Sequence record: PQ871103.1
From: Escherichia phage vB_Eco_ZCEC15
DNA length: 64,000 nt
Reading direction: 5' to 3' (one strand)
This document shows positions 6,665 through 55,833 of the stretch, one piece after another; within the stretch, counting starts at the first letter, position 1; each line of letters begins with the position of its first letter. The notes beneath the pieces were generated by a model that ran no database searches, had not been told where the DNA came from, and saw only the letters and a program-made list of their open reading frames with translations. The position numbers and the translations under genes were made by a program.

Positions 6665-6817
6665 TTAAACCTCAATTGATACATTCATATTTAACTTGTA
6701 ACAGTAATAAACCCCAACCTATAATAAGTGTCGGAATCATACAAGGAACCGTTACGCTATAGTATATACTTATTATAATCATCAAGATTAAAAGCAATAC
6801 TGCTAAAATTTTGCTTT

Positions 6818-7069
6818 TCATTCCTTCTCTCTGATGATAATTACTTGATTTGGTTGTGCGGATTTTTTAGTTTCACCCGCAATTGACCAAATAAATGTAA
6901 TAAACCAACCAATAATTGACCAATTAAACAGTAAAGATGTGAAAAAGATTCCTACTGTCGATTTTGACCCGCGCATCAAGGCGATGAACCATGGAAGCAT
7001 GTATATAATAATAGCCAACACGCCTGAAACTAAAACCATAAAAATTGAACCTGCTACTAAAGTTTCCAT
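6818..7069 (-). CDS. imm: Imm superinfection immunity membrane protein, 83 aa
   Basis: Two hydrophobic helices, 83 aa, position downstream of 43. Confidence 0.8.
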   Translation of the reverse strand: METLVAGSIFMVLVSGVLAIIIYMLPWFIALMRGSKSTVGIFFTSLLFNWSIIGWFITFIWSIAGETKKSAQPNQVIIIREKE

Positions 7070-7076
7070 ATTTTCC

Positions 7077-7457
7077 TCACTTAGTCAAATTTTTTACACA
7101 TGAATTATAAGAATTCACTACATACTCCATCGGAGCATTTTTACCTGTACGCCACTGGTAATTATTAGCCCAATTTGCCCAAAGTTCAGCGCAGTAGTTT
7201 TCAATTTTTTCTTCGCGTGTAATTACATCTGAATTACGATATGCTTGAGCAGATTCATCTGGACGAATAGCTTCGTCAAAATTCGCCTGCATTTGTTCTA
7301 CTGTTTGCTTTGGAGCTTCTTTATAACACTTGACATTAGGATTATAAAATTTGCTTGAACAGTTTACAATTTTTCCTGCATCAGACTGATTTACTACCGG
7401 TCCTTGAGCTACACAACCAGTAAGACCTAATGCAATAACCAAAATAGCGATTTTCAT
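7077..7457 (-). CDS. predicted lipoprotein, 126 aa (imm.1 position)
   Basis: Signal peptide with lipobox LTGC; Cys-rich mature part. Confidence 0.6.
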   Translation of the reverse strand: MKIAILVIALGLTGCVAQGPVVNQSDAGKIVNCSSKFYNPNVKCYKEAPKQTVEQMQANFDEAIRPDESAQAYRNSDVITREEKIENYCAELWANWANNYQWRTGKNAPMEYVVNSYNSCVKNLTK

Positions 7458-7467
7458 AATAATTTCC

Positions 7468-7716
7468 TCAAATGCAAGTAGTAATTACTCCAGTAGTGCT
7501 TATGCAGGTATTACCCATTTGCACACCTAAAGATCCATTTGTATTCACATGAAGATTATCATCAATTTTAACTGATATTTTACCATTAGTGTGAATAACG
7601 GTGCTAGATTCAATCACAGGTTGAGTATCATTTTCAACACTAACAAATGGAACTGCTGCTAATGCAACTAAACAAACTGCTAAGCATCCCATAACAATTT
7701 TCATTTCATTCTCCAA
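7468..7716 (-). CDS. small exported protein, about 78-82 aa
   Basis: Signal peptide; GGAG SD before ATG at about 7704; early promoter module immediately upstream. Confidence 0.5.
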   Translation of the reverse strand: MENEMKIVMGCLAVCLVALAAVPFVSVENDTQPVIESSTVIHTNGKISVKIDDNLHVNTNGSLGVQMGNTCISTTGVITTCI

Positions 7717-7741
7717 ATCCGTATCAGTAGTTGATAGTTGT

Positions 7742-7771
7742 ATAGTACCATAGAAGAACAGGGATGTAAAC
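7742..7771 (-). promoter_or_regulatory. sigma70-type early promoter (TTTACA-17-TACTAT on minus strand)
   Basis: GTTTAC -35 and TACTAT -10 read on minus strand; same module repeated at 50572..50601. Confidence 0.55.
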
Positions 7772-7850
7772 AGTTTTGTGAAAAAATTTTTAGGGAATCC
7801 AAAGGGTCCAGAATCATCTCTTTTTCATAAGTATAGATTTATATTACTTG

Positions 7851-7876
7851 TATGAAAAAGGGACCTGGAGGTCCCT
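7851..7876 (-). terminator. intrinsic terminator downstream of gene 43 (stem AGGGACC/GGTCCCT plus U-run)
   Basis: Perfect 7-bp inverted repeat with 4-nt loop followed by U-run on minus-strand transcript. Confidence 0.6.
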
Positions 7877-7888
7877 AGATTTATTCTA

Positions 7889-10585
7889 TCAGCCAAACAG
7901 GAAGTCTAACGAAGCTTTTTCTTCATAGTCCATGCCAGCCGATTCACACATACCCGCAAGCGGTTTAACAAACGATTTTTGGAACAAAGTTGAGTGGTCA
8001 ATCCAAGATAGCACATCAGAACGAATTTCTTTTGGAAGTTCTGTACCCGATGGCCAAGCAATGCACTTGTCACCAAATGGATTTCCTTCACGTAATGGAA
8101 GAACCATTACTTTATTTCCATCCAAAATTGGAGCTACACCCAGACCACTAACAGCTCGACGATAAGTTAGCACACCGCGAATATGGAACGGGCATTTAAA
8201 TCCTGGCCAACCTTTATCATCATATTTCGCTATATCGTTCGCAGTTTTTACTTCAGCAATAACTTTATAGTCAAGTTGACGATATTCTTTCTCGAAGTTC
8301 TTGTAGTATTCTTGGACAGACTCTTCACCTTCTTGAAGAATACGACGAATACTTTCTTCGAGAGCTTCTTGCACTGCTTTTGGTGTTGAACTCTGCTGAG
8401 TTTCCATACCCATGATTTTTAGATGCGGTTCAGCAAATCGTTTATCTTCCATATCATAAACGTTCAGAGCATAACGCTTTTTCGCTTTCCAAAATCCACC
8501 AACACCCTTTGAACCAAGTGGAGGGCAAGAAATAGCTTCACGGTCCATATGCATCAGATGCTCGCGGTTATTCATATAATCACATAACTCACGATATGCA
8601 ACATCAATCATAGGTTCCATCTTTTTCTTACCGAACTGATTCATGAATTCAACTAAATCGTTCTGCTCTTTGAATCGGTCAAGACCAACTTTTTCAATAA
8701 CTTTATCTACACAAACATATACCGAATCAGTATCACCTGCTGCGATGAAATCTTCACCATTAGTTCCGCATACTTTATTCAGATATTCATTAATTTTACG
8801 AGCAATCCACTGAATACCAACTTGGCCGAAAATTGTGATAGCAGTAGCATTTCGCAAATCATAGTAACGAAAATGAATATTACCAAGAGCACCGTAAAGA
8901 CTGTTAATAAGAATTTTACGGTTCAGCTGATTTGTGTTAGCAAGTGTAGCTGCTTTTTCACATTCTTCAATCAAACTATTGAGAACAGATTCAGTGTAAT
9001 TCGATAGTTCATTTAAGAAATCATCACTGAACTTAACATATCGTTCAACTTCAGGTTTAGTTGAACAAGACCCTGCGCCTTTCATAATAATCTTTTTAAT
9101 AGCTTCGGCATTCATTTCTTCAGCGAACATTTTCTTTTTCCAATCTTTACGCTGGAAAAATACTTTAGCGATTTCCTTTGGAATGATACCTTCTTGATGC
9201 TTATCATACATCCATCCATTCGGAGAACAAGAATATTCATCACTCGGTTTAGGAGCTGTTCCTGCGATATATTCATGAATTGGATGAACTTTAAACTGAC
9301 CACGAATAGTCTCAGGACTAATGTTAACCTGACGAATAATGCTCGGATACAGAGACGTCAAGTCAAAACTCATAATATATCGACGAGCAATTGGTTTAGG
9401 TTCAAATACAAATGCACCCGGAAAACTTTGTTTAACGTGCGAACCTTGTTGAGGAATAACCTTATGTTCACCTTTCAGTGAGTTAAAAATAATAGCGTCC
9501 CAAGTTTTAATAGGACTCATTACACCAGAAAAAGGCATTTTAGCGTAATAAGACATACTTAAAACTAGATCGATAAACCCACGAATTTTATCAATTGCTT
9601 GAACTGATTCTACGTCAATGATGTTATAACTAATGTATCGTTGATGATTAGTCTCACGAAGTTTATTAATAGGACCATCGTACGGCAATTTACCTTTTTT
9701 GGTTTCATGTTGAGCAACTGATTCCAACGAGAACGATGGCAAATTAGTAAATGCGAACTTCTTGTATAAATCTAAATAATCAAGAATAGATACGCCATCA
9801 ATAGAATAAATTTCTTTGCTACCGTACATATTTTGAATTAGTTTAGATTTTACTCGACCGATTGGAGAGAAGCGTTTCATACTACGTTCACCGAGAACCA
9901 TTTTAACGCGATTCATGATATACGGAACGTCAAATCCCTCAATATTCCAACCAGTAAAAATAGCAGGTCGTTTCTGTTCCCAGAGATTGATATATTCCAT
10001 GAGCATATCACGCTCATTATCGAATGGCATATAAATTACTCGGTCAAGAATTTCTTGAGGAACTTCATCACCACCTTCACAGTCAAGCTTAGCAGCTAAC
10101 TTTGCATCCCATTTTGATACTGAACCGTACATTGAATTCAACAAATCAAAGACGTAAAAACGGTCGTCAATTGAATCGTAATGAGTGATAGCATCAATTT
10201 CATATTCTGCTTTCATTGGGTCAGGAAATTTATCACCAGTAACCTCAATGTCGCAGTTAGCTACACGAACAAATTTTCGGTCATAAACAATTTCTGAACC
10301 ATATGTATCACTGATATAAGCGAGTTTAAAATCGTTCATACCGAGAGCTTCGAGACCGATGTCTTCCATTCGCTTCATCCAGTCTCGTGCATCTTTCATT
10401 GATGGAAATTTTTGAGGAGCGCAATTTTTACCATAAATGTCTTTGTATTTTGACTCTTCCTTACAATGCCTAAACATAGTCGGAAGATATTCTACTTCAC
10501 GAGTACGTTCCTTTCCGTTTTCATCAATATAACGTTCAACAATATTATTTCCGACTGTTTCGATAGAGATATAAAATTCTTTCAT
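7889..10585 (-). CDS. 43: DNA polymerase gp43 (family B), 898 aa
   Basis: Near-identical to T4 gp43 over full length as recalled. Confidence 0.98.
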   Translation of the reverse strand: MKEFYISIETVGNNIVERYIDENGKERTREVEYLPTMFRHCKEESKYKDIYGKNCAPQKFPSMKDARDWMKRMEDIGLEALGMNDFKLAYISDTYGSEIVYDRKFVRVANCDIEVTGDKFPDPMKAEYEIDAITHYDSIDDRFYVFDLLNSMYGSVSKWDAKLAAKLDCEGGDEVPQEILDRVIYMPFDNERDMLMEYINLWEQKRPAIFTGWNIEGFDVPYIMNRVKMVLGERSMKRFSPIGRVKSKLIQNMYGSKEIYSIDGVSILDYLDLYKKFAFTNLPSFSLESVAQHETKKGKLPYDGPINKLRETNHQRYISYNIIDVESVQAIDKIRGFIDLVLSMSYYAKMPFSGVMSPIKTWDAIIFNSLKGEHKVIPQQGSHVKQSFPGAFVFEPKPIARRYIMSFDLTSLYPSIIRQVNISPETIRGQFKVHPIHEYIAGTAPKPSDEYSCSPNGWMYDKHQEGIIPKEIAKVFFQRKDWKKKMFAEEMNAEAIKKIIMKGAGSCSTKPEVERYVKFSDDFLNELSNYTESVLNSLIEECEKAATLANTNQLNRKILINSLYGALGNIHFRYYDLRNATAITIFGQVGIQWIARKINEYLNKVCGTNGEDFIAAGDTDSVYVCVDKVIEKVGLDRFKEQNDLVEFMNQFGKKKMEPMIDVAYRELCDYMNNREHLMHMDREAISCPPLGSKGVGGFWKAKKRYALNVYDMEDKRFAEPHLKIMGMETQQSSTPKAVQEALEESIRRILQEGEESVQEYYKNFEKEYRQLDYKVIAEVKTANDIAKYDDKGWPGFKCPFHIRGVLTYRRAVSGLGVAPILDGNKVMVLPLREGNPFGDKCIAWPSGTELPKEIRSDVLSWIDHSTLFQKSFVKPLAGMCESAGMDYEEKASLDFLFG

Positions 10586-33903: not shown

Positions 33904-33931
33904 TTTGTGTTCCTCCGTAGTTGATAGTTGT

Positions 33932-33960
33932 ATAGTACCACAGAGGAACAGTCTTGTAAA
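33932..33960 (-). promoter_or_regulatory. early promoter module (copy of 7742..7771 type)
   Basis: tatagtacca...tgtaaa on plus strand. Confidence 0.5.
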
Positions 33961-33963
33961 CCA

Positions 33964-34278
33964 CTAAAAGAAACTTCTTTCACAATTTTTTCCACTGAAC
34001 CATGCACTTACCGCTTTCTTGGTCTCAGGAGCAGTGTTATCCATAAACCATTCAAAGGCAGCCTTTTTGTGATTCTGGAGGGCTTCTCGGGCTTTAATCT
34101 GCTCACGGTCTATTAACACTAACATATGAGCCTTTCTTGTCACCATGGGCTTCTTATGATTTTTTGAATACTCCCAGTCATTTGTCCATCGCATTGTCGT
34201 TGCAAACTGAAATACTGCTTCTTTAATTTTAGTTTCGTAAATTTCACGAGCCTTTGAGTATAACATCATTACCTCCAT
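33964..34278 (-). CDS. hypothetical protein, 104 aa
   Basis: ORF track. Confidence 0.5.
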   Translation of the reverse strand: MEVMMLYSKAREIYETKIKEAVFQFATTMRWTNDWEYSKNHKKPMVTRKAHMLVLIDREQIKAREALQNHKKAAFEWFMDNTAPETKKAVSAWFSGKNCERSFF

Positions 34279-34367: not shown

Positions 34368-35354
34368 TTATTTCAGAAGAGTAACCTCAGCGATTTCTTC
34401 CCAACCGTTTTTGTCGGTCATAATAAAGTCAGCAAGATAAAGAGCAGTACGCAGTGAAACATTGCGTAAACGATTAACATTAACTTTCATCCATGATAAT
34501 GCTTTATAAGTTTCTTCATCAGAAAGACCACGCTTTTGCATCATGTCAGTTGAAAGAATAACATCTTCAACCCTGACCATAATTTCTTCATTAGTGTGAA
34601 CACCCAAATCTAAATAAACCGAGCGGGACACTAATGCTTGTAAATGTGGAGCAAGTTTAGTACCACGGTCTAATTCGCGGTCAATGTCAACGTTTGTGAT
34701 AAAAACAATCGTTCCTTTAAATTCAAACTCACGCTCAATGCCTTTTTCTTCTAAGTAAGAAGACGCAGTGCTCCAGCAGACTTTACGGGTCTCTCCAGTG
34801 TCCAGAGCGGCTTTTAGAAGATTAAGAATGTCCATATCAGAGAAAACATCCACATCATCAATCAAAAGGACAGAATTCTCTTCACGATTATTCCAAAGCT
34901 GCTCATAAAGACCAATACCAGAGATTTTACCATTAATGCTTTTATATTCAATGTATCCAATATCATTTGCTTTATTTAAAGCTTTATCTAAAGAATACGT
35001 TTTACCAATACCTGCTGCACCAGAGATAATCAATGAACGAATATTTCCATTAATAATACCATTCGTCATCATTCCCATAACATTAAATCTTTTATTAATG
35101 CGGGTTTTCATATCTTCATATGATTCTTTAACTTCTTCAACTTTTACACCATCATATGAAATATCTGATTTGTAAACCCAAACACCGCGACGTTTACCGT
35201 CAATTTCAACAAAAACTTTACCATCTCCTTGTGCATCTACCGGAGCATTATCTGGGAACCATTCGCCTAAGAGCTCAAAAGTTCCAGAGATTTCTTTACC
35301 GAAGTAGATACCCTTATTGATAGTTACAGTTTTCATTTTATTCTCCAATTTCAC
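34368..35354 (-). CDS. P-loop NTPase, 328 aa (Walker A GAAGIGKT, Walker B LLIDDVD)
   Basis: Motifs read directly from translation. Confidence 0.65.
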   Translation of the reverse strand: MKLENKMKTVTINKGIYFGKEISGTFELLGEWFPDNAPVDAQGDGKVFVEIDGKRRGVWVYKSDISYDGVKVEEVKESYEDMKTRINKRFNVMGMMTNGIINGNIRSLIISGAAGIGKTYSLDKALNKANDIGYIEYKSINGKISGIGLYEQLWNNREENSVLLIDDVDVFSDMDILNLLKAALDTGETRKVCWSTASSYLEEKGIEREFEFKGTIVFITNVDIDRELDRGTKLAPHLQALVSRSVYLDLGVHTNEEIMVRVEDVILSTDMMQKRGLSDEETYKALSWMKVNVNRLRNVSLRTALYLADFIMTDKNGWEEIAEVTLLK

Positions 35355-35405
35355 ATTTGTTTTGATAGGGTAATAGTATCACACTACTACCCTACTGTAA
35401 ACAAT

Positions 35406-35669
35406 TTATTTTAGTGTTTGCCAAATTTTTACTGCTTCGCGACGAGATACTTCTACAGCTCCAAGTTCTACGGCTTTTTGACGTCGGCGAGCATGTAAGT
35501 CATAATGTTTAATGCGTTTATCTTGAAACCAAGAACGTTTCATTCCTATTGCTTCTGCCATTTCATGGAGCTCTTCAATATCTCCATCAGTGAACATATG
35601 ACAATTTTTAGTTAGATGACCGCGAAGTTTCCATCCATGATTCATTAAAACATCTACGTAAACTGTCAT
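35406..35669 (-). CDS. small protein, 87 aa, DUF4031-like
   Basis: Motif pattern GMKRSWFQ...HYDL...GA resembles the DUF4031 family as I recall it; stop overlaps upstream gene by 4 nt. Confidence 0.5.
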   Translation of the reverse strand: MTVYVDVLMNHGWKLRGHLTKNCHMFTDGDIEELHEMAEAIGMKRSWFQDKRIKHYDLHARRRQKAVELGAVEVSRREAVKIWQTLK

Positions 35670-36859
35670 TGATTCTGCTCCAAATATGTTTCTATAATTT
35701 TCTGAGCGAGATAAACTGCGTTATCTTCAGTTGCATCTTCTAAGAAATTTTCAAAATAAGCTGAAATTTCTTCTGTGTCAATCAACTTTTTTACTTCAAT
35801 TAACGTAGTTTTCATTTTATTCCCCAAATCCGTATCAGTTGATAGTTGTATAGTACCATATCGGTGGTTTTCAAGATAAACCCTCTCAAGGAAGTCATCC
35901 CAGAACCCCATGTCTACTTTTTGCTGCATACCGTTCTTAGAAGCTTCAATGGATGCTGCTTCTACTTGATCGACCACATCTTCCAAAAACTCTTGAACCG
36001 TTTTAAATGGATGTTTACCCAGCTTCACGTCGAGAATAAATGAAGCATCTTGAAGTGGATAGACCAAGTCACCAGTTTTGTAAATTTCCAATAGTTGGAG
36101 TCCACCACGACAAGCATGACTCAGGGCTTTCCAGTCAATGCCCTCATTCGCCTCAGCCTTACGAGCACGTTCGCCGTATTCAGCATCTAATTTGTTCAGT
36201 GACTGCTTAAGCTCAATAAGAGAAAGCGTTGTCTGATATTTACGACCCAACACCGTATAGAATGTTTGTGGGCCTGTTTTCTCATGATTATGGAATACCC
36301 ATTCACAGAATTCGTTTTCTGGAAGACGATGCTTAATATCTTCTACCTTAGTCCGACGTAAACGATCTGGAATGCCTTCTTGATAATCAACCCATTGTTC
36401 AGGAATCTGGTTAACAATTTCCAATACACCACGCAGTGCAGCCAATCGAGAACCCTTAACGCCGTATTTAGAAGCTTGCTTGCGAACATATCCTAAATAG
36501 GATTTCATGTTAGTCGTATAAAAACGAGAACGATTGTCTTGAACAAATTTCCATACATCAGGCAAATCAGATTTAACTACCAGTTCAGGTGGAGTGTGGA
36601 GCATATCCAATGCTACAGTTTCACCATCTGCTGCTAATTTAAAGAAATACTTAAGACTGTATAGTTCATGGTCAATATCATCTTTAGTGTTTTTAGATGA
36701 TGTGCTGTTAGTGTTTTTACTCATATGCTCTTTAACATTTCCGATAAGAATATCACGAGCAGGAGGAACAAAGATTTCTTTAAAATCTACATCAGATTCT
36801 GGAGTAGAAGTTCCATAAAGATGACTACCAAAATAGCTTTTCATTACTGTTTTCATCAT
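35666..36859 (-). CDS. Pol-beta-superfamily nucleotidyltransferase-like protein, 397 aa
   Basis: N-terminal GS-x8-DVD motif (YFGSHLYGTSTPESDVDF) typical of minimal nucleotidyltransferases. Confidence 0.6.
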   Translation of the reverse strand: MMKTVMKSYFGSHLYGTSTPESDVDFKEIFVPPARDILIGNVKEHMSKNTNSTSSKNTKDDIDHELYSLKYFFKLAADGETVALDMLHTPPELVVKSDLPDVWKFVQDNRSRFYTTNMKSYLGYVRKQASKYGVKGSRLAALRGVLEIVNQIPEQWVDYQEGIPDRLRRTKVEDIKHRLPENEFCEWVFHNHEKTGPQTFYTVLGRKYQTTLSLIELKQSLNKLDAEYGERARKAEANEGIDWKALSHACRGGLQLLEIYKTGDLVYPLQDASFILDVKLGKHPFKTVQEFLEDVVDQVEAASIEASKNGMQQKVDMGFWDDFLERVYLENHRYGTIQLSTDTDLGNKMKTTLIEVKKLIDTEEISAYFENFLEDATEDNAVYLAQKIIETYLEQNQ

Positions 36860-50263: not shown

Positions 50264-50581
50264 TTATTTCATATTATTGAAATATTCTTCTGCGATTTCG
50301 TCGTTATCATGGTAAACTTTAGAAGACAGTTTAACATAACCTTCTGCTGTGAACATATTAATCACAACTTTTACAGTATACCACTGACCGTCTTCATTAC
50401 CCATTACTGCGTAAGTTTCAAACATCGGATGATCAGGACCGATAACTTTAATATCATTCACTGTACGACCGAAATCTTCTGAAACGCATTTCATAAAGAA
50501 GTTGAACAGTTCGCCGTAATTATCCATTTCATTCTCCAAGTTGTTTTTCTGTATCAGTAGTTGATAGTTGTATAGTACCAT
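50264..50581 (-). CDS. hypothetical protein (likely 87 aa from Met19 at about 50527)
   Basis: GGAG SD precedes internal ATG; promoter module upstream. Confidence 0.5.
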   Translation of the reverse strand: MVLYNYQLLIQKNNLENEMDNYGELFNFFMKCVSEDFGRTVNDIKVIGPDHPMFETYAVMGNEDGQWYTVKVVINMFTAEGYVKLSSKVYHDNDEIAEEYFNNMK

Positions 50582-50601
50582 GGAAGAACAGGGATGTAAA
50601 C
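50572..50601 (-). promoter_or_regulatory. early promoter (duplicate of 7742..7771)
   Basis: About 80 bp near-identical to 7717..7800. Confidence 0.55.
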
Positions 50602-50735
50602 AGTTTTGTGAAAAAAATTTTTAAAAAGTTTTAGGGAATTCTAGGGTCAGGAGGGACAATTAAAAGGTAGGATAATATATTATAAAGGGTATAAACTAAA
50701 TGATGCCTAGAGAGACAAGGAAAGGCCTAGATACC

Positions 50736-50763
50736 AAAAAGCCCCAACCTTTTGGTCGGGGCT
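50736..50763 (-). terminator. intrinsic terminator (10-bp stem plus U-run on minus strand)
   Basis: aaaaagccccaacc-tttt-ggtcggggct on plus strand. Confidence 0.6.
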
Positions 50764-50770
50764 AAGAATG

Positions 50771-51232
50771 TTATTTGATTTGTTTAGCAGACCAAATGCG
50801 GTCTTTGATGATTTTTTGGAGGTCTTCAACATACTCTAGGTCATGAGCATGTGGATTATCTTTGAAACTATGAGCTCGCGCAAGTTTCTGGCCTTCGGTC
50901 TTAATTATCAAAAGTTCTTTAAGAATTGCTTCATACCTAGAGATAATTCCTTTAGCAATATTTTTTTCTTGTGCTGCTTTAGGGTCAGCCTTAGGAGCAG
51001 GTTTACCAGAAGGTTTTTCGAAAGCCGCGCCAGTAGCAACCAGGCTTTTCCAGGCGGTGGTAACATAGTTACCCACAAAGCCTTCAGCTCTCATATCGTC
51101 GTAGAACTTGTACCGAGATTCGTCAGAAGCATCTTTATAAGAATATTTACCAGCTTTAATAGCAGCAGTTGCTACAGCGCGAACATCTGAAGCGGATGCT
51201 TCGGTCATTAAAAATTGAGCATAAGTTTTCAT
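50771..51232 (-). CDS. internal-protein-like protein, 153 aa, N-terminal MKTYAQFLMTEA
   Basis: N-terminus resembles the capsid-targeting sequence of T4 internal proteins; late promoter upstream. Confidence 0.55.
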   Translation of the reverse strand: MKTYAQFLMTEASASDVRAVATAAIKAGKYSYKDASDESRYKFYDDMRAEGFVGNYVTTAWKSLVATGAAFEKPSGKPAPKADPKAAQEKNIAKGIISRYEAILKELLIIKTEGQKLARAHSFKDNPHAHDLEYVEDLQKIIKDRIWSAKQIK

Positions 51233-51260: not shown

Positions 51261-51268
51261 TATTTATA
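51261..51268 (-). promoter_or_regulatory. late promoter TATAAATA (minus strand)
   Basis: tatttata on plus strand about 29 nt upstream of ATG at 51232. Confidence 0.5.
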
Positions 51269-51270
51269 CT

Positions 51271-51298
51271 AAAAAGCCCCAACCTTTCGGTCGGGGCT
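51271..51298 (-). terminator. intrinsic terminator closing the tRNA/stable-RNA transcription unit
   Basis: agccccaacc-tttc-ggtcggggct with GAAA loop on RNA and A5 on plus strand. Confidence 0.6.
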
Positions 51299-51305
51299 AA
51301 GCCTT

Positions 51306-51612: not shown

Positions 51613-51689
<77 letters not shown>

Positions 51690-51692
51690 TAA

Positions 51693-52358
51693 TTAAAATT
51701 TCATTTTTCTACCTTTAAACCATCCTTCTGGAATTGGGTCAGTTTTCTTAATACGTTTAGAAACTTTTTCATCTAATGAATGAATCCACATCATACCAAA
51801 TTGGGAATTCTTTTCACCTTGTTGGTGTTTATTTTTGGCGTGAGATTCTTTCATTTTATTAATAGTTTCAGGAGTATGATGCTTATTTAAAAATCTGCTA
51901 TTATTTAAAAATTTTTCCCTGTATTCAGGAGTTGACCACAAACGTTTAAATACATTTGAACCATGTTTACGATATTTTTCTTGAAGTAAAATATCATTTT
52001 TAAAACGTGACTTAAACGATTTAGCTCCTTTTAAACTAGCGTCTTTCTTCTGATTTAGCATCTCAGGAATATTTATATGGTCCCATCCACCTTCACCACC
52101 AAGTTTTAAATTATACACATCTGGTCTATTTAAAAACTCTTCTGTGACAATATTTTTCTCGGCTTCAAGCATAGATTCTTTATCATCAAAATACTCTAAT
52201 ATTTCTTTAGAGAAATTTTCTATACCATACTTGTCTTGGGCTCTTTTTAATAATTTACCAGAACCCATATATCCATCATCTAAATTTTCGGTAGAATGCA
52301 CACCAATATAAATTTTATTATTAATTTTATTTGTTATTTTATAAGTGTAATGGAACAT
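51693..52358 (-). CDS. segB: GIY-YIG homing endonuclease SegB, 221 aa
   Basis: YTYKITNKINNKIYIGVHS motif; sits between tRNA subclusters as in T4. Confidence 0.85.
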   Translation of the reverse strand: MFHYTYKITNKINNKIYIGVHSTENLDDGYMGSGKLLKRAQDKYGIENFSKEILEYFDDKESMLEAEKNIVTEEFLNRPDVYNLKLGGEGGWDHINIPEMLNQKKDASLKGAKSFKSRFKNDILLQEKYRKHGSNVFKRLWSTPEYREKFLNNSRFLNKHHTPETINKMKESHAKNKHQQGEKNSQFGMMWIHSLDEKVSKRIKKTDPIPEGWFKGRKMKF

Positions 52359-52418
52359 AAATATCTCCTATTTCTAAGAGTATTTATGTTCCCAAAATAT
52401 GGCCCTGGGTGGAATTGA

Positions 52419-52490
52419 ACCACCATCTGGCGATTATGAGTCGCTTGCTTGAACCTTCCAGCTACAGGGCCTTGGTGCTGATTGACGGAA
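52419..52490 (-). tRNA. tRNA-Ile (anticodon CAU, lysidine type), CCA not encoded
   Basis: Acceptor GGCCCTG/CAGGGCC, T-arm GGTTCAATTCC, anticodon loop CTCATAA. Confidence 0.7.
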
Positions 52491-52491
52491 T

Positions 52492-52567
52492 CGAACCGCC
52501 GACGTCCTCATTACAAGTGAGGTGCTCTACCTACTGAGCTAAATCAGCGAAATTACGGAGGCGATAG
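52492..52567 (-). tRNA. tRNA-Thr (anticodon UGU), CCA encoded
   Basis: Acceptor GCTGATT/AATCAGC, anticodon loop CTTGTAA. Confidence 0.8.
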
Positions 52568-52574
52568 GATTTGA

Positions 52575-52661
52575 ACCTATGAGTCGCCGGAGCGACTGCC
52601 GGTTTTCAAGACCGGTGCATTAAACCACTCTGCCACGCCTCCAGTCTCCATACAAGGATTT
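52575..52661 (-). tRNA. tRNA-Ser (anticodon UGA), long variable arm
   Basis: Acceptor GGAGGCG/CGCCTCC, anticodon loop CTTGAAA. Confidence 0.8.
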
Positions 52662-52663
52662 GA

Positions 52664-52821
<158 letters not shown>

Positions 52822-52826
52822 GGACT

Positions 52827-52913
52827 CGAACCCACAAGGAAATCATTCCGCAGCATTTTAAGTGCTGTGCCTTTACCAATTTGACCATTCTCGCGCTGGG
52901 AATAAAGGACTCG
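52827..52913 (-). tRNA. tRNA-Leu (anticodon UAA), long variable arm, CCA encoded
   Basis: Acceptor GCGAGAA/TTCTCGC, anticodon loop CTTAAAA. Confidence 0.8.
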
Positions 52914-52914
52914 A

Positions 52915-52987
52915 ACCTTTGCATCCTGGAATCAAAATCCAGTGCCTTACCAACTTGGCTAATTCCCAATTATTAACAAAGGCTCTT
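52915..52987 (-). tRNA. tRNA-Gln (anticodon UUG)
   Basis: Acceptor TGGGAAT/ATTCCCA, anticodon loop TTTTGAT. Confidence 0.8.
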
Positions 52988-54464: not shown

Positions 54465-54495
54465 AGTAAATAGGGTAATAGTATCACTACCCTAT
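54465..54495 (-). promoter_or_regulatory. promoter-early stem-loop (PeSL-like) module: dyad AGGGTA/TACCCT around -10, GTTTAC -35
   Basis: Inverted repeat flanking atagtatcac core; compare 54763 and 55093. Confidence 0.5.
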
Positions 54496-54507
54496 CTAAA
54501 AGTAAAC

Positions 54508-54741
54508 TTATTTTTTACGAAAAATTGATTTATTTTCTGCTGCCCATTTTTCAATAACTGCAGCAGGACCAGTAACAACAATTTTATCACCGTAATCTTC
54601 TGCGGCGAGTTGACCGAAATTATCTAATGCATCACGAAGAACTCCATGAGGCATTTCACCCATTTTATCTTTCTTGCCAGTGTAAATAAACTCAACTTTT
54701 ACATCAGCAGTTTCAGCAATAAATTCTTGGTAAGTTTTCAT
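54508..54741 (-). CDS. internal-protein-like protein (about 77 aa from MKTYQEFIAE)
   Basis: N-terminus MKTYQEFIAE resembles the T4 internal-protein capsid-targeting sequence. Confidence 0.6.
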   Translation of the reverse strand: MKTYQEFIAETADVKVEFIYTGKKDKMGEMPHGVLRDALDNFGQLAAEDYGDKIVVTGPAAVIEKWAAENKSIFRKK

Positions 54742-54762
54742 TTTGATTTCCATTTGGTTTTG

Positions 54763-54795
54763 TTTTGATAGGGTAATAGTATCACAACTAAAACC
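54763..54795 (-). promoter_or_regulatory. PeSL-like module: dyad ATAGGGT/ACCCTAT around -10
   Basis: As above with different arm sequence. Confidence 0.5.
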
Positions 54796-54817
54796 CTATG
54801 TAAACAACTTTGTGAAA

Positions 54818-55075
54818 TTATTTTAAATCTTCTAATCGTTTCTTCATCTTAGAACCATTTTTAGCAATTTCTCCTGCATCGGAGCATAATGCTAAAAGTG
54901 CTTTAACTTTAGTTTGGTCTCCTTTAAAAGATGAAGGATCGACCGCAGCAGCAAGTTCTTTAATACGAGAGAAAAGACGCTCAGCTTCAGCTAAAGCCAT
55001 TCCAAGCTTTACTTCCATACCGTGGGAAGATTCAGTGATAGTAGTTTTTGTAGCAAACTCTTTGAAAGTTTTCAT
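54818..55075 (-). CDS. internal-protein-like protein, 85 aa, N-terminal MKTFKEFATK
   Basis: CTS-like N-terminus; flanked by PeSL-like modules. Confidence 0.55.
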   Translation of the reverse strand: MKTFKEFATKTTITESSHGMEVKLGMALAEAERLFSRIKELAAAVDPSSFKGDQTKVKALLALCSDAGEIAKNGSKMKKRLEDLK

Positions 55076-55092
55076 TTTTATTTTCCTAATTA

Positions 55093-55125
55093 ATTTTGAT
55101 GAGGTAATAGTATCACTACCTCATC
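55093..55125 (-). promoter_or_regulatory. PeSL-like module: dyad GATGAGGTA/TACCTCATC around -10
   Basis: 9-bp arms flanking atagtatcac; GTTTAC -35 at about 55122-55127. Confidence 0.5.
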
Positions 55126-55148
55126 AGTATGTAAACAACTTTGTGAAA

Positions 55149-55833
<685 letters not shown>

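Follow-up and report, generated by a model that had tools for sequence, protein, structure and literature searches.

Why should some 80 bp of DNA, running from a promoter through to a start codon, be present twice and almost unchanged at sites tens of kilobases apart in the same phage? This question is raised by the stretch of Escherichia phage vB_Eco_ZCEC15 analyzed here (PQ871103.1; 64,000 nt, referred to below as the window), for which a sequence-only reading had proposed such a duplication and had suggested that it can drive recombination and gene shuffling. The two copies are designated A and B, and the coordinates of the features discussed are collected in Table 1.

By its sequence, the window is a Tequatrovirus (T4-like phage). 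The region from 7000 to 9000, which includes the gene 43-imm locus, is 99.8% identical to that of Shigella phage ESh29 and 95 to 99% identical to those of several hundred T4-like phages, and the early genes of the window are carried on the minus strand, as are the early genes of T4.

Table 1. Positions of the module copies, their elements, and adjoining features in the window
Feature	Position	Strand	Basis or remark
Core repeat block, copy A (D4 reference)	7718-7791	-	Repeat search
UP-element region, copy A	7772-7800	-	Sequence; A/T-rich, ggattccctaaaaattttttcacaaaact
-35 G-TTTACA, copy A	7765-7771	-	Consensus scan
Extended -10 TGG-TACTAT, copy A	7742-7750	-	Scan; 17-nt spacer
Predicted 5' leader, copy A	7705-7735	-	Putative +1 about 7 nt past -10
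GGAG Shine-Dalgarno, copy A	7711-7714	-	Sequence
Core repeat block, copy B	50548-50621	-	96% to A; UP-proximal part to 24 nt past -10
GTTTAC, copy B	50596-50601	-	Scan
TGG-TACTAT, copy B	50572-50580	-	Scan
Distal leader, copy B	50525-50547	-	Gapped alignment; 7-nt insertion versus A
GGAG, copy B	50534-50537	-	
ATG, copy B	50525-50527	-	
Intrinsic terminator hairpin after gene 43 (DNA polymerase)	7859-7876	-	7-bp stem, 5 GC pairs, T-run
Terminator hairpin upstream of copy B	50740-50763	-	138 nt from copy B -35
Third member, nrdC.8 promoter	33908-33981	-	GTTTAC 33956-33961, TGG-TACTAT, leader acaactatcaactacGGAGG, ATG 33903
Fourth member, nrdC.10-type, truncated	35811-35860	-	Extended -10, leader, SD, and ATG only
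78-aa ORF (ORF78; MKIVMGCLAV..., phrog_4189, no assigned function)	7468-7704	-	First gene after copy A
imm.1 homologue	7077-7457	-	Second gene of copy A unit; 98.4% identical to T4 imm.1
e.8 homologue, 87 aa, phrog_2678	50264-50527	-	Gene driven by copy B

Extent and copies of the repeat

A repeat search of the 64-kb window places the copies in one family (D4), in which copy B matches the reference, copy A, at 71 of 74 positions and a third copy is 69% identical to that reference. The 21-mer GGTACTATACAACTATCAACT occurs four times in the window, each time on the minus strand (7729, 33919, 35837, and 50559), and in none of 100 dinucleotide-preserving shuffles, which rules out a chance origin of the repeat. 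When copies A and B are aligned with their T4 counterparts and gaps are allowed, an unbroken block extends from the A/T tract upstream of the -35 element to ...ACTGATAC. Beyond a 7-nt indel, identity between A and B restarts over TTGGAGAATGAAATG (7702-7716 and 50525-50539), and the module consequently spans the UP region to the start codon. The proposed duplication of about 80 bp is therefore real, its match being regained through the Shine-Dalgarno sequence and the ATG. The shorter copies that had been placed at 33905-33960 and 35815-35860 are present as well, at 33908-33981 and 35811-35860.

The identity is not confined to the -10 and -35 hexamers, as the alignment shows that the spacer and the transcribed leader match too. 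To place this in context, 21 promoter-like sites of the window were anchored on their -10 hexamers and compared pairwise over 90 nt without gaps (210 pairs). The A-B pair is a clear outlier at 86%. It can be asked whether convergence or selection alone could have produced this likeness, with both sites separately optimized as sigma-70 promoters of the greatest strength and as efficient translation starts and no exchange between them. T4 early promoters do share a consensus that reaches past the hexamers (PMC2988021), and many unrelated early promoters of the window have GTTTAC, TG-TAYTAT, and ACTAC(T)GAGGAG-like leaders in common. Against such an origin, the other promoter pairs of the window reach a median of only 41% and a maximum, in the runner-up pair, of 73%, and the identity of A and B covers 12 spacer bases without base-specific contact as well as the first 20 or so nucleotides to be transcribed.

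One part of the sequence-only reading has to be corrected. The open reading frame starts that it had used, a TTG at 7716 and an ATG at 50581, are artefacts of mechanical longest-ORF calling, the latter being the 'catGG' of the copy B extended -10. The real start codons are the ATGs at 7704 and 50527, each of which lies 7 nt past GGAG and agrees with the annotated gene lengths in phage e11/2 (237 and 264 nt). There is a lesson for annotation here, in that mechanical ORF calls extend into promoters of this kind.

Outside the window, a 101-nt module query matched 1328 places in 530 phage records, the e.8 promoter of Mosigvirus RB69 among them, and a scan of IMG/VR with the 21-mer GGTACTATACAACTATCAACT returned a handful of T4-like contigs.

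Promoter architecture and downstream genes

On the minus strand, the module reads ccctaaaaattttttcacaaaact-GTTTAC-atccctgttcttc(t/c)a-TGG-TACTAT-acaactatcaactactgatac...GGAGAATGAA-ATG. A consensus scan recovers TTTACA-17-TACTAT in both copies (minus strand, 7770-7742 and 50600-50572), with TG ahead of the second hexamer, so that the extended -10 of A and B reads TGGTACTAT. Directly 5' of GTTTAC in both copies, the A/T-rich ccctaaaaattttttcacaaaact forms the UP-element region at about -40 to -60, which copy A has in common with copy B except for an indel of about 11 nt. Taken with a terminator upstream, GGAG-N7-ATG downstream, and a position on the early-gene strand, these elements bear out the earlier assignment of a -10, a -35, and a ribosome-binding site. 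The hairpin that terminates gene 43 lies 87 nt upstream of the copy A -35 and is annotated likewise in e11/2 and G8.

Copy A sits between this terminator and the 78-aa ORF, with imm.1 and imm next in line, and the predicted promoter would express these three genes. Copy B, also a predicted promoter, would serve e.8 and the genes that follow it. T4 has the orthologous copies at about 27.06 kb, ahead of imm.1, and at about 70.67 kb, ahead of e.8. The T4 regB annotation names GGAG, the sequence of these ribosome-binding sites, as the site at which RegB cuts a subset of mRNAs.

Several observations concern the surroundings of the two units. The 78-aa ORF (phrog_4189) encodes a probable secreted or membrane protein. 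A 49-aa hydrophobic ORF (6672-6821) lies between imm and gene 42. Its annotation in e11/2 and G8 is that of a hypothetical protein, and the T4 record leaves about 150 nt unannotated at this site. An eight-tRNA cluster (51613-52968; Arg, Met, Thr, Ser, Pro, Gly, Leu, and Gln) differs in content from that of T4, in which Ile takes the place of Met(cat), and a segB-like GIY-YIG homing-endonuclease ORF (51693-52358) is placed between tRNA-Arg and tRNA-Met.

The module has further relatives, and T4 holds additional ones upstream of nrdC.10 and cef. In the nrdC.10 copy of T4 and e11/2, the hairpin directly abuts the UP region. The fourth member in the window has lost its -35, UP region, and terminator through an 84-nt deletion seen in this window only. 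Relative to T4 and e11/2, this deletion (junction near 35861/35862) has also removed the nrdC.11 stop codon together with the terminator hairpin, and the nrdC.11-like ORF (35666-36859) continues in frame across what is left of the promoter and joins the small ORF that follows, giving 397 aa versus 336 aa in T4. None of the top-ranked matches listed carries the deletion, all of them aligning in two pieces, and it is a mutation specific to this isolate or else a mistake in the assembly.

On the same strand, the window has about 17 similar GTTTAC-N18-TAnnnT sites, with a Shine-Dalgarno sequence and an ATG behind each. In 6 of 17 other early promoters of the window, perfect inverted repeats of 7 to 12 bp straddle the -10 (minus strand, -35 at 55136, 54507, 50263, 46392, 35402, and 1420), for example, CCAACAAGACTA-tggtatag-TAGTCTTGTTGG; a repeat of at least 7 bp is reached in 1.4% of shuffled sequences. 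No dyad across the -10 is present in copies A and B. It is conceivable that these dyads could form a hairpin in read-through transcripts or be the 'SL' part of PeSLs (promoter-early stem-loop cassettes). A second early-promoter subfamily, which reads TTTTGATAGGGTAATAGTATCAC on the plus strand, is repeated at a spacing of about 300 bp (D1-D3 and D5; 35336-35430, 54470-54516, 54739-54833, and 55070-55164) and adjoins the ipI-like slot and nrdC.10, where the gene contents of the window and T4 differ.

Could the leader itself be what is conserved? Folding of three leader types predicts them to be unstructured (z = 0.18, 1.08, and 1.08, with 0.18 for copy A), and an Rfam gathering search of the whole window returned eight tRNAs only, leaving the leaders without a family match. 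A structured RNA leader or riboswitch is rejected on these grounds.

The same results bear on the broader proposal that A and B share a cis-regulatory element, such as an operator bound by a host or phage factor or an Alt-stimulation determinant, or a functional RNA leader through which the imm.1 and e.8 units are coregulated. Between window positions 50264-50770 and the 72300-74600 region of Mosigvirus RB69, module B (96.5%) is more alike than its own e.8 coding region (93.6%) and far more alike than the sequence just upstream (83.7%), a gradient that a conserved cis element would fit and that suggests either cross-genus exchange or strong constraint at the e.8 locus. It is also the case that Alt stimulation of certain early promoters hinges on positions yet to be identified (PMC2988021). 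With leaders that are predicted to be unstructured and match no Rfam family, a locus A that tolerates several spacer and leader alleles across phages, and no candidate binding protein known, we nonetheless regard such an element as very unlikely to explain the repeat.

Variation of the two loci among related phages

Orthologous sites were compared over a 72-nt core at locus A in ten genomes and at locus B in nine, with both loci represented in eight; ACG-C40 and HY03 contribute locus A only, and the ECp13 copy at locus A was left out of the allele analysis. Mean identity is 96.5% among the B orthologues, RB69 included, and 85.8% among the A orthologues. Copy A of the window agrees with the B copies of any genome at 67 to 70 of the 72 positions and with most A orthologues at 59 to 68, the exception being the identical allele of e11/2. 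Inside one genome, A-B identity ranges from 58/72 in BGP to 69/72 in the window and e11/2. To judge from these alignments, locus B is stable, and locus A combines B-type with nrdC.8-type segments in mosaic fashion.

The spacer illustrates this patchwork. At locus A, it is B-type (ATCCCTGTTCTTCTATGG) in the window, e11/2, G8, and HY03, where the promoter would drive ORF78, and nrdC.8-type (AAGACTGTTCCTCTGTGG) in T2 and BGP, where RB51ORF048 and ORF78, respectively, would be driven. In T4, the first part is nrdC.8-type and the second part B-type (AAGACTGTTCTTCCATGG), and in IME339 the first part is B-type and the second nrdC.8-like (ATCCCGGTTCCTTTGTGG), with imm.1 the gene directly driven in both. 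Locus A of T2 has an nrdC.8-type leader and Shine-Dalgarno sequence too (acaactatcaactacGGAGGaacacaaaATG), yet it keeps the A-specific upstream half. As this chimeric allele is found in 31 database records, independent T2 sequences included, it is not an assembly artefact.

At the nucleotide level, either state of spacer block positions 2 to 4 (TCC or AGA) is found with either state of site 11 (T or C), so that all four combinations exist. A segment-level incompatibility test (UP by spacer by leader type) gave combinations that still fit a tree, and it is only the nucleotide-level four-gamete pattern, together with positional orthology, that argues for exchange. T4 and the window match at 100% over the 87 nt that lie upstream of module A and at 98 to 99% in the genes on either side, yet module A itself has five differences within its 18-nt spacer, four of them in the first five bases. 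Such clustering of differences in the spacer amid 98 to 100% identical DNA speaks against convergence, as does the way in which A alleles match different paralogues block by block, leader indels included (T2 versus nrdC.8). We thus consider separate optimization of the two sites an unlikely explanation.

Our preferred reading, to which we assign a probability of roughly 0.85, is that the repeat is a T4-type early promoter cassette and that the near-identity of A and B reflects common descent and repeated nonallelic exchange. In the mechanism proposed, the host sigma-70 RNA polymerase would fire the cassette right after infection, transcription would start about 7 nt past TACTAT, and the leader would be short and unstructured, with the GGAG ribosome-binding site and then the ATG. 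Paralogous early promoters would swap sequence through gene conversion or cassette swapping, and the crossovers would fall inside the invariant cores TTTTCACAAAACTGTTTAC and TGGTACTATACAACTATCAACTAC. We infer recombination as the cause of the mosaic alleles, and some of the A-B similarity could stem from strong selection for an optimal promoter.

The form that such exchange can take is constrained by what lies between the copies. The two form direct repeats at a distance of 42.8 kb, with genes 43, 62, 44, 45, 46, 47, and 55 in the interval. In T4, all of these genes are essential. A reciprocal crossover between A and B would therefore produce a lethal deletion or an unpackageable duplication, and it follows that only nonreciprocal conversion or local cassette exchange would have viable outcomes. 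The appearance of the mosaic alleles points to conversion or cassette exchange between paralogous copies.

Gene content also varies at the cassettes. The slot behind promoter A, 7468-7704 in the window, is polymorphic: the 78-aa ORF lies between the promoter and imm.1 in the window, e11/2, G8, ACG-C40, BGP, PYPS2T, and HY03; T2 has a different, unrelated 83-aa ORF, RB51ORF048; and the promoter stands directly before imm.1 in T4, IME339, and ECp13. The T4 junction left by the absence of ORF78 falls within the 8-nt ATGAAAAT that ORF78 and imm.1 both have at their start. Near copy B, a 153-aa ORF (50771-51232; phrog_2280, no assigned function) is bracketed by 36-nt direct terminator repeats with 94% identity and a spacing of 535 bp (family D9; 50731-50766 and 51266-51301). 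In T4 the ORF is missing and there is just one terminator, whose loop base is that of the upstream copy and whose tail base is that of the downstream copy, with the outer flanks matching each side. This seemingly chimeric terminator fits excision or insertion through recombination within the hairpin repeat and, with two discriminating sites only, is suggestive rather than conclusive.

Comparison with related genomes thus indicates that genes and pieces of promoter have been swapped at the copies. As to the suggestion of recombination and gene shuffling, the mosaic A alleles, the three downstream arrangements, and the junctions in shared ATG or terminator repeats support it by way of comparison. 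Set against T4, the window shows 19 structural differences that are 40 nt or longer, and in only 4 of these does an edge fall within an early-promoter module, where a uniform null expects 1.0 (P about 0.016); this is a weak enrichment, and the null is a naive one, as it ignores that viable indels are confined to gene boundaries.

Most of the remaining differences between the window and T4 are homing-endonuclease genes present in T4 only, and one may ask whether homing-endonuclease coconversion or another mobile element spread the copies. The abundance of such genes among the T4-specific insertions would suit this idea, as would the segB-like gene 1.1 kb upstream of copy B and the unusual likeness of the e.8 locus in the window and Mosigvirus RB69. 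Coconversion, however, shifts allelic flanks between genomes and leaves a nonallelic identity across 43 kb unexplained, and no endonuclease gene adjoins copy A in the window. We consider this origin extremely improbable.

Relation to known early promoter cassettes

T4 early promoters (Pe) are reportedly the subject of work by Liebig and Rueger in 1989 and by Wilkens and Rueger in 1996; our literature search on T4 transcription-start mapping found nothing relevant. These promoters have been described as 'uber' UP/-35/TGn/-10 promoters with extra consensus regions, which compete extremely well for the host sigma-70 polymerase and some of which are stimulated by Alt ADP-ribosylation (Hinton 2010; PMC2988021). 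The module shares with them its UP region, GTTTAC, 17-nt spacing, TGn and TAYTAT, GGAG-type Shine-Dalgarno sequence, and location on the early strand before early genes, and T4 holds both copies at orthologous sites, in the upstream regions of imm.1 and e.8. There is no essential difference, the A-B pair being far more alike (96% over 74 nt versus a typical value of about 41% over 90 nt).

The closest precedent, for the sequence and also for the mechanism of exchange proposed above, is the PeSL. Promoter-terminator cassettes of about 100 bp have been reported in RB49 and phi1, with crossovers between the -10 and the ATG or Shine-Dalgarno sequence and with mini-circles detected (Arbiol et al. 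2010; PMC2839356). The concept was extended to the PST/T4 pair, for which the consensus is TTTACW-N17-TAYWAT with an AT-rich 5' region and a Shine-Dalgarno sequence and ATG at the 3' end (Comeau, Arbiol, and Krisch 2014; PMC4122927). TTTACA-N17-TACTAT matches this consensus exactly. The copies resemble PeSLs in being conserved composite units about 100 bp long and in recurring within hyperplastic regions; the small ORFs next to them vary among close relatives, and crossovers fall either in the AT-rich part or in the stretch from the -10 to the ATG. The cassette is multicopy, with four members of the subfamily and about 17 early promoters in 64 kb, and junctions between relatives lie inside it, with modest enrichment (4/19).

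In other respects the correspondence with the PeSL is less clear. Copies A and B do have hairpins, but these lie 87 and 138 nt upstream and do not abut the promoter. Mini-circle excision is inapplicable to a pair 43 kb apart with essential genes between its members, and the evidence at locus A consists of conversion-like patchworks at one locus and not of excision.

Similar to this is the shuffling at the T-even internal protein (IP) locus (Repoila et al. 1994, as cited in PMC4122927), which reportedly trades small variable genes across regulatory repeats that are themselves conserved. In the window, early promoters likewise bound the ipI and ipII/ipIII slots, although these slots use the other promoter subfamily (D1-D3), which has a dyad across the -10.

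The feature is thus already known, as a T4 early promoter of the PeSL type. Little in it is new, since T4 early promoters and PeSLs as recombination-prone cassettes have been described and T4 has this exact pair. It could be speculated that the identity of about 100 bp is maintained by something besides recombination and marks a site for a trans-acting factor that couples the ORF78-imm.1-imm unit with the e.8 unit, and candidates could be an Alt-dependent stimulation determinant, an early shut-off factor, or a site-preferring recombination function. We hold this to be quite improbable; if true, ectopic gene conversion over 26 to 43 kb would be a means of copying the site between loci.

The added value of the repeat, read as an early promoter cassette, is modest and lies in a clean example in which the alleles of the gene 43/imm.1 locus appear as patchworks of two other early promoters. 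Across Tequatroviruses, this locus downstream of gene 43 drives three gene arrangements. The patchworks would fit ectopic conversion between promoters that lie tens of kilobases from each other, and not just the local mini-circle excision on which the literature has dwelt.
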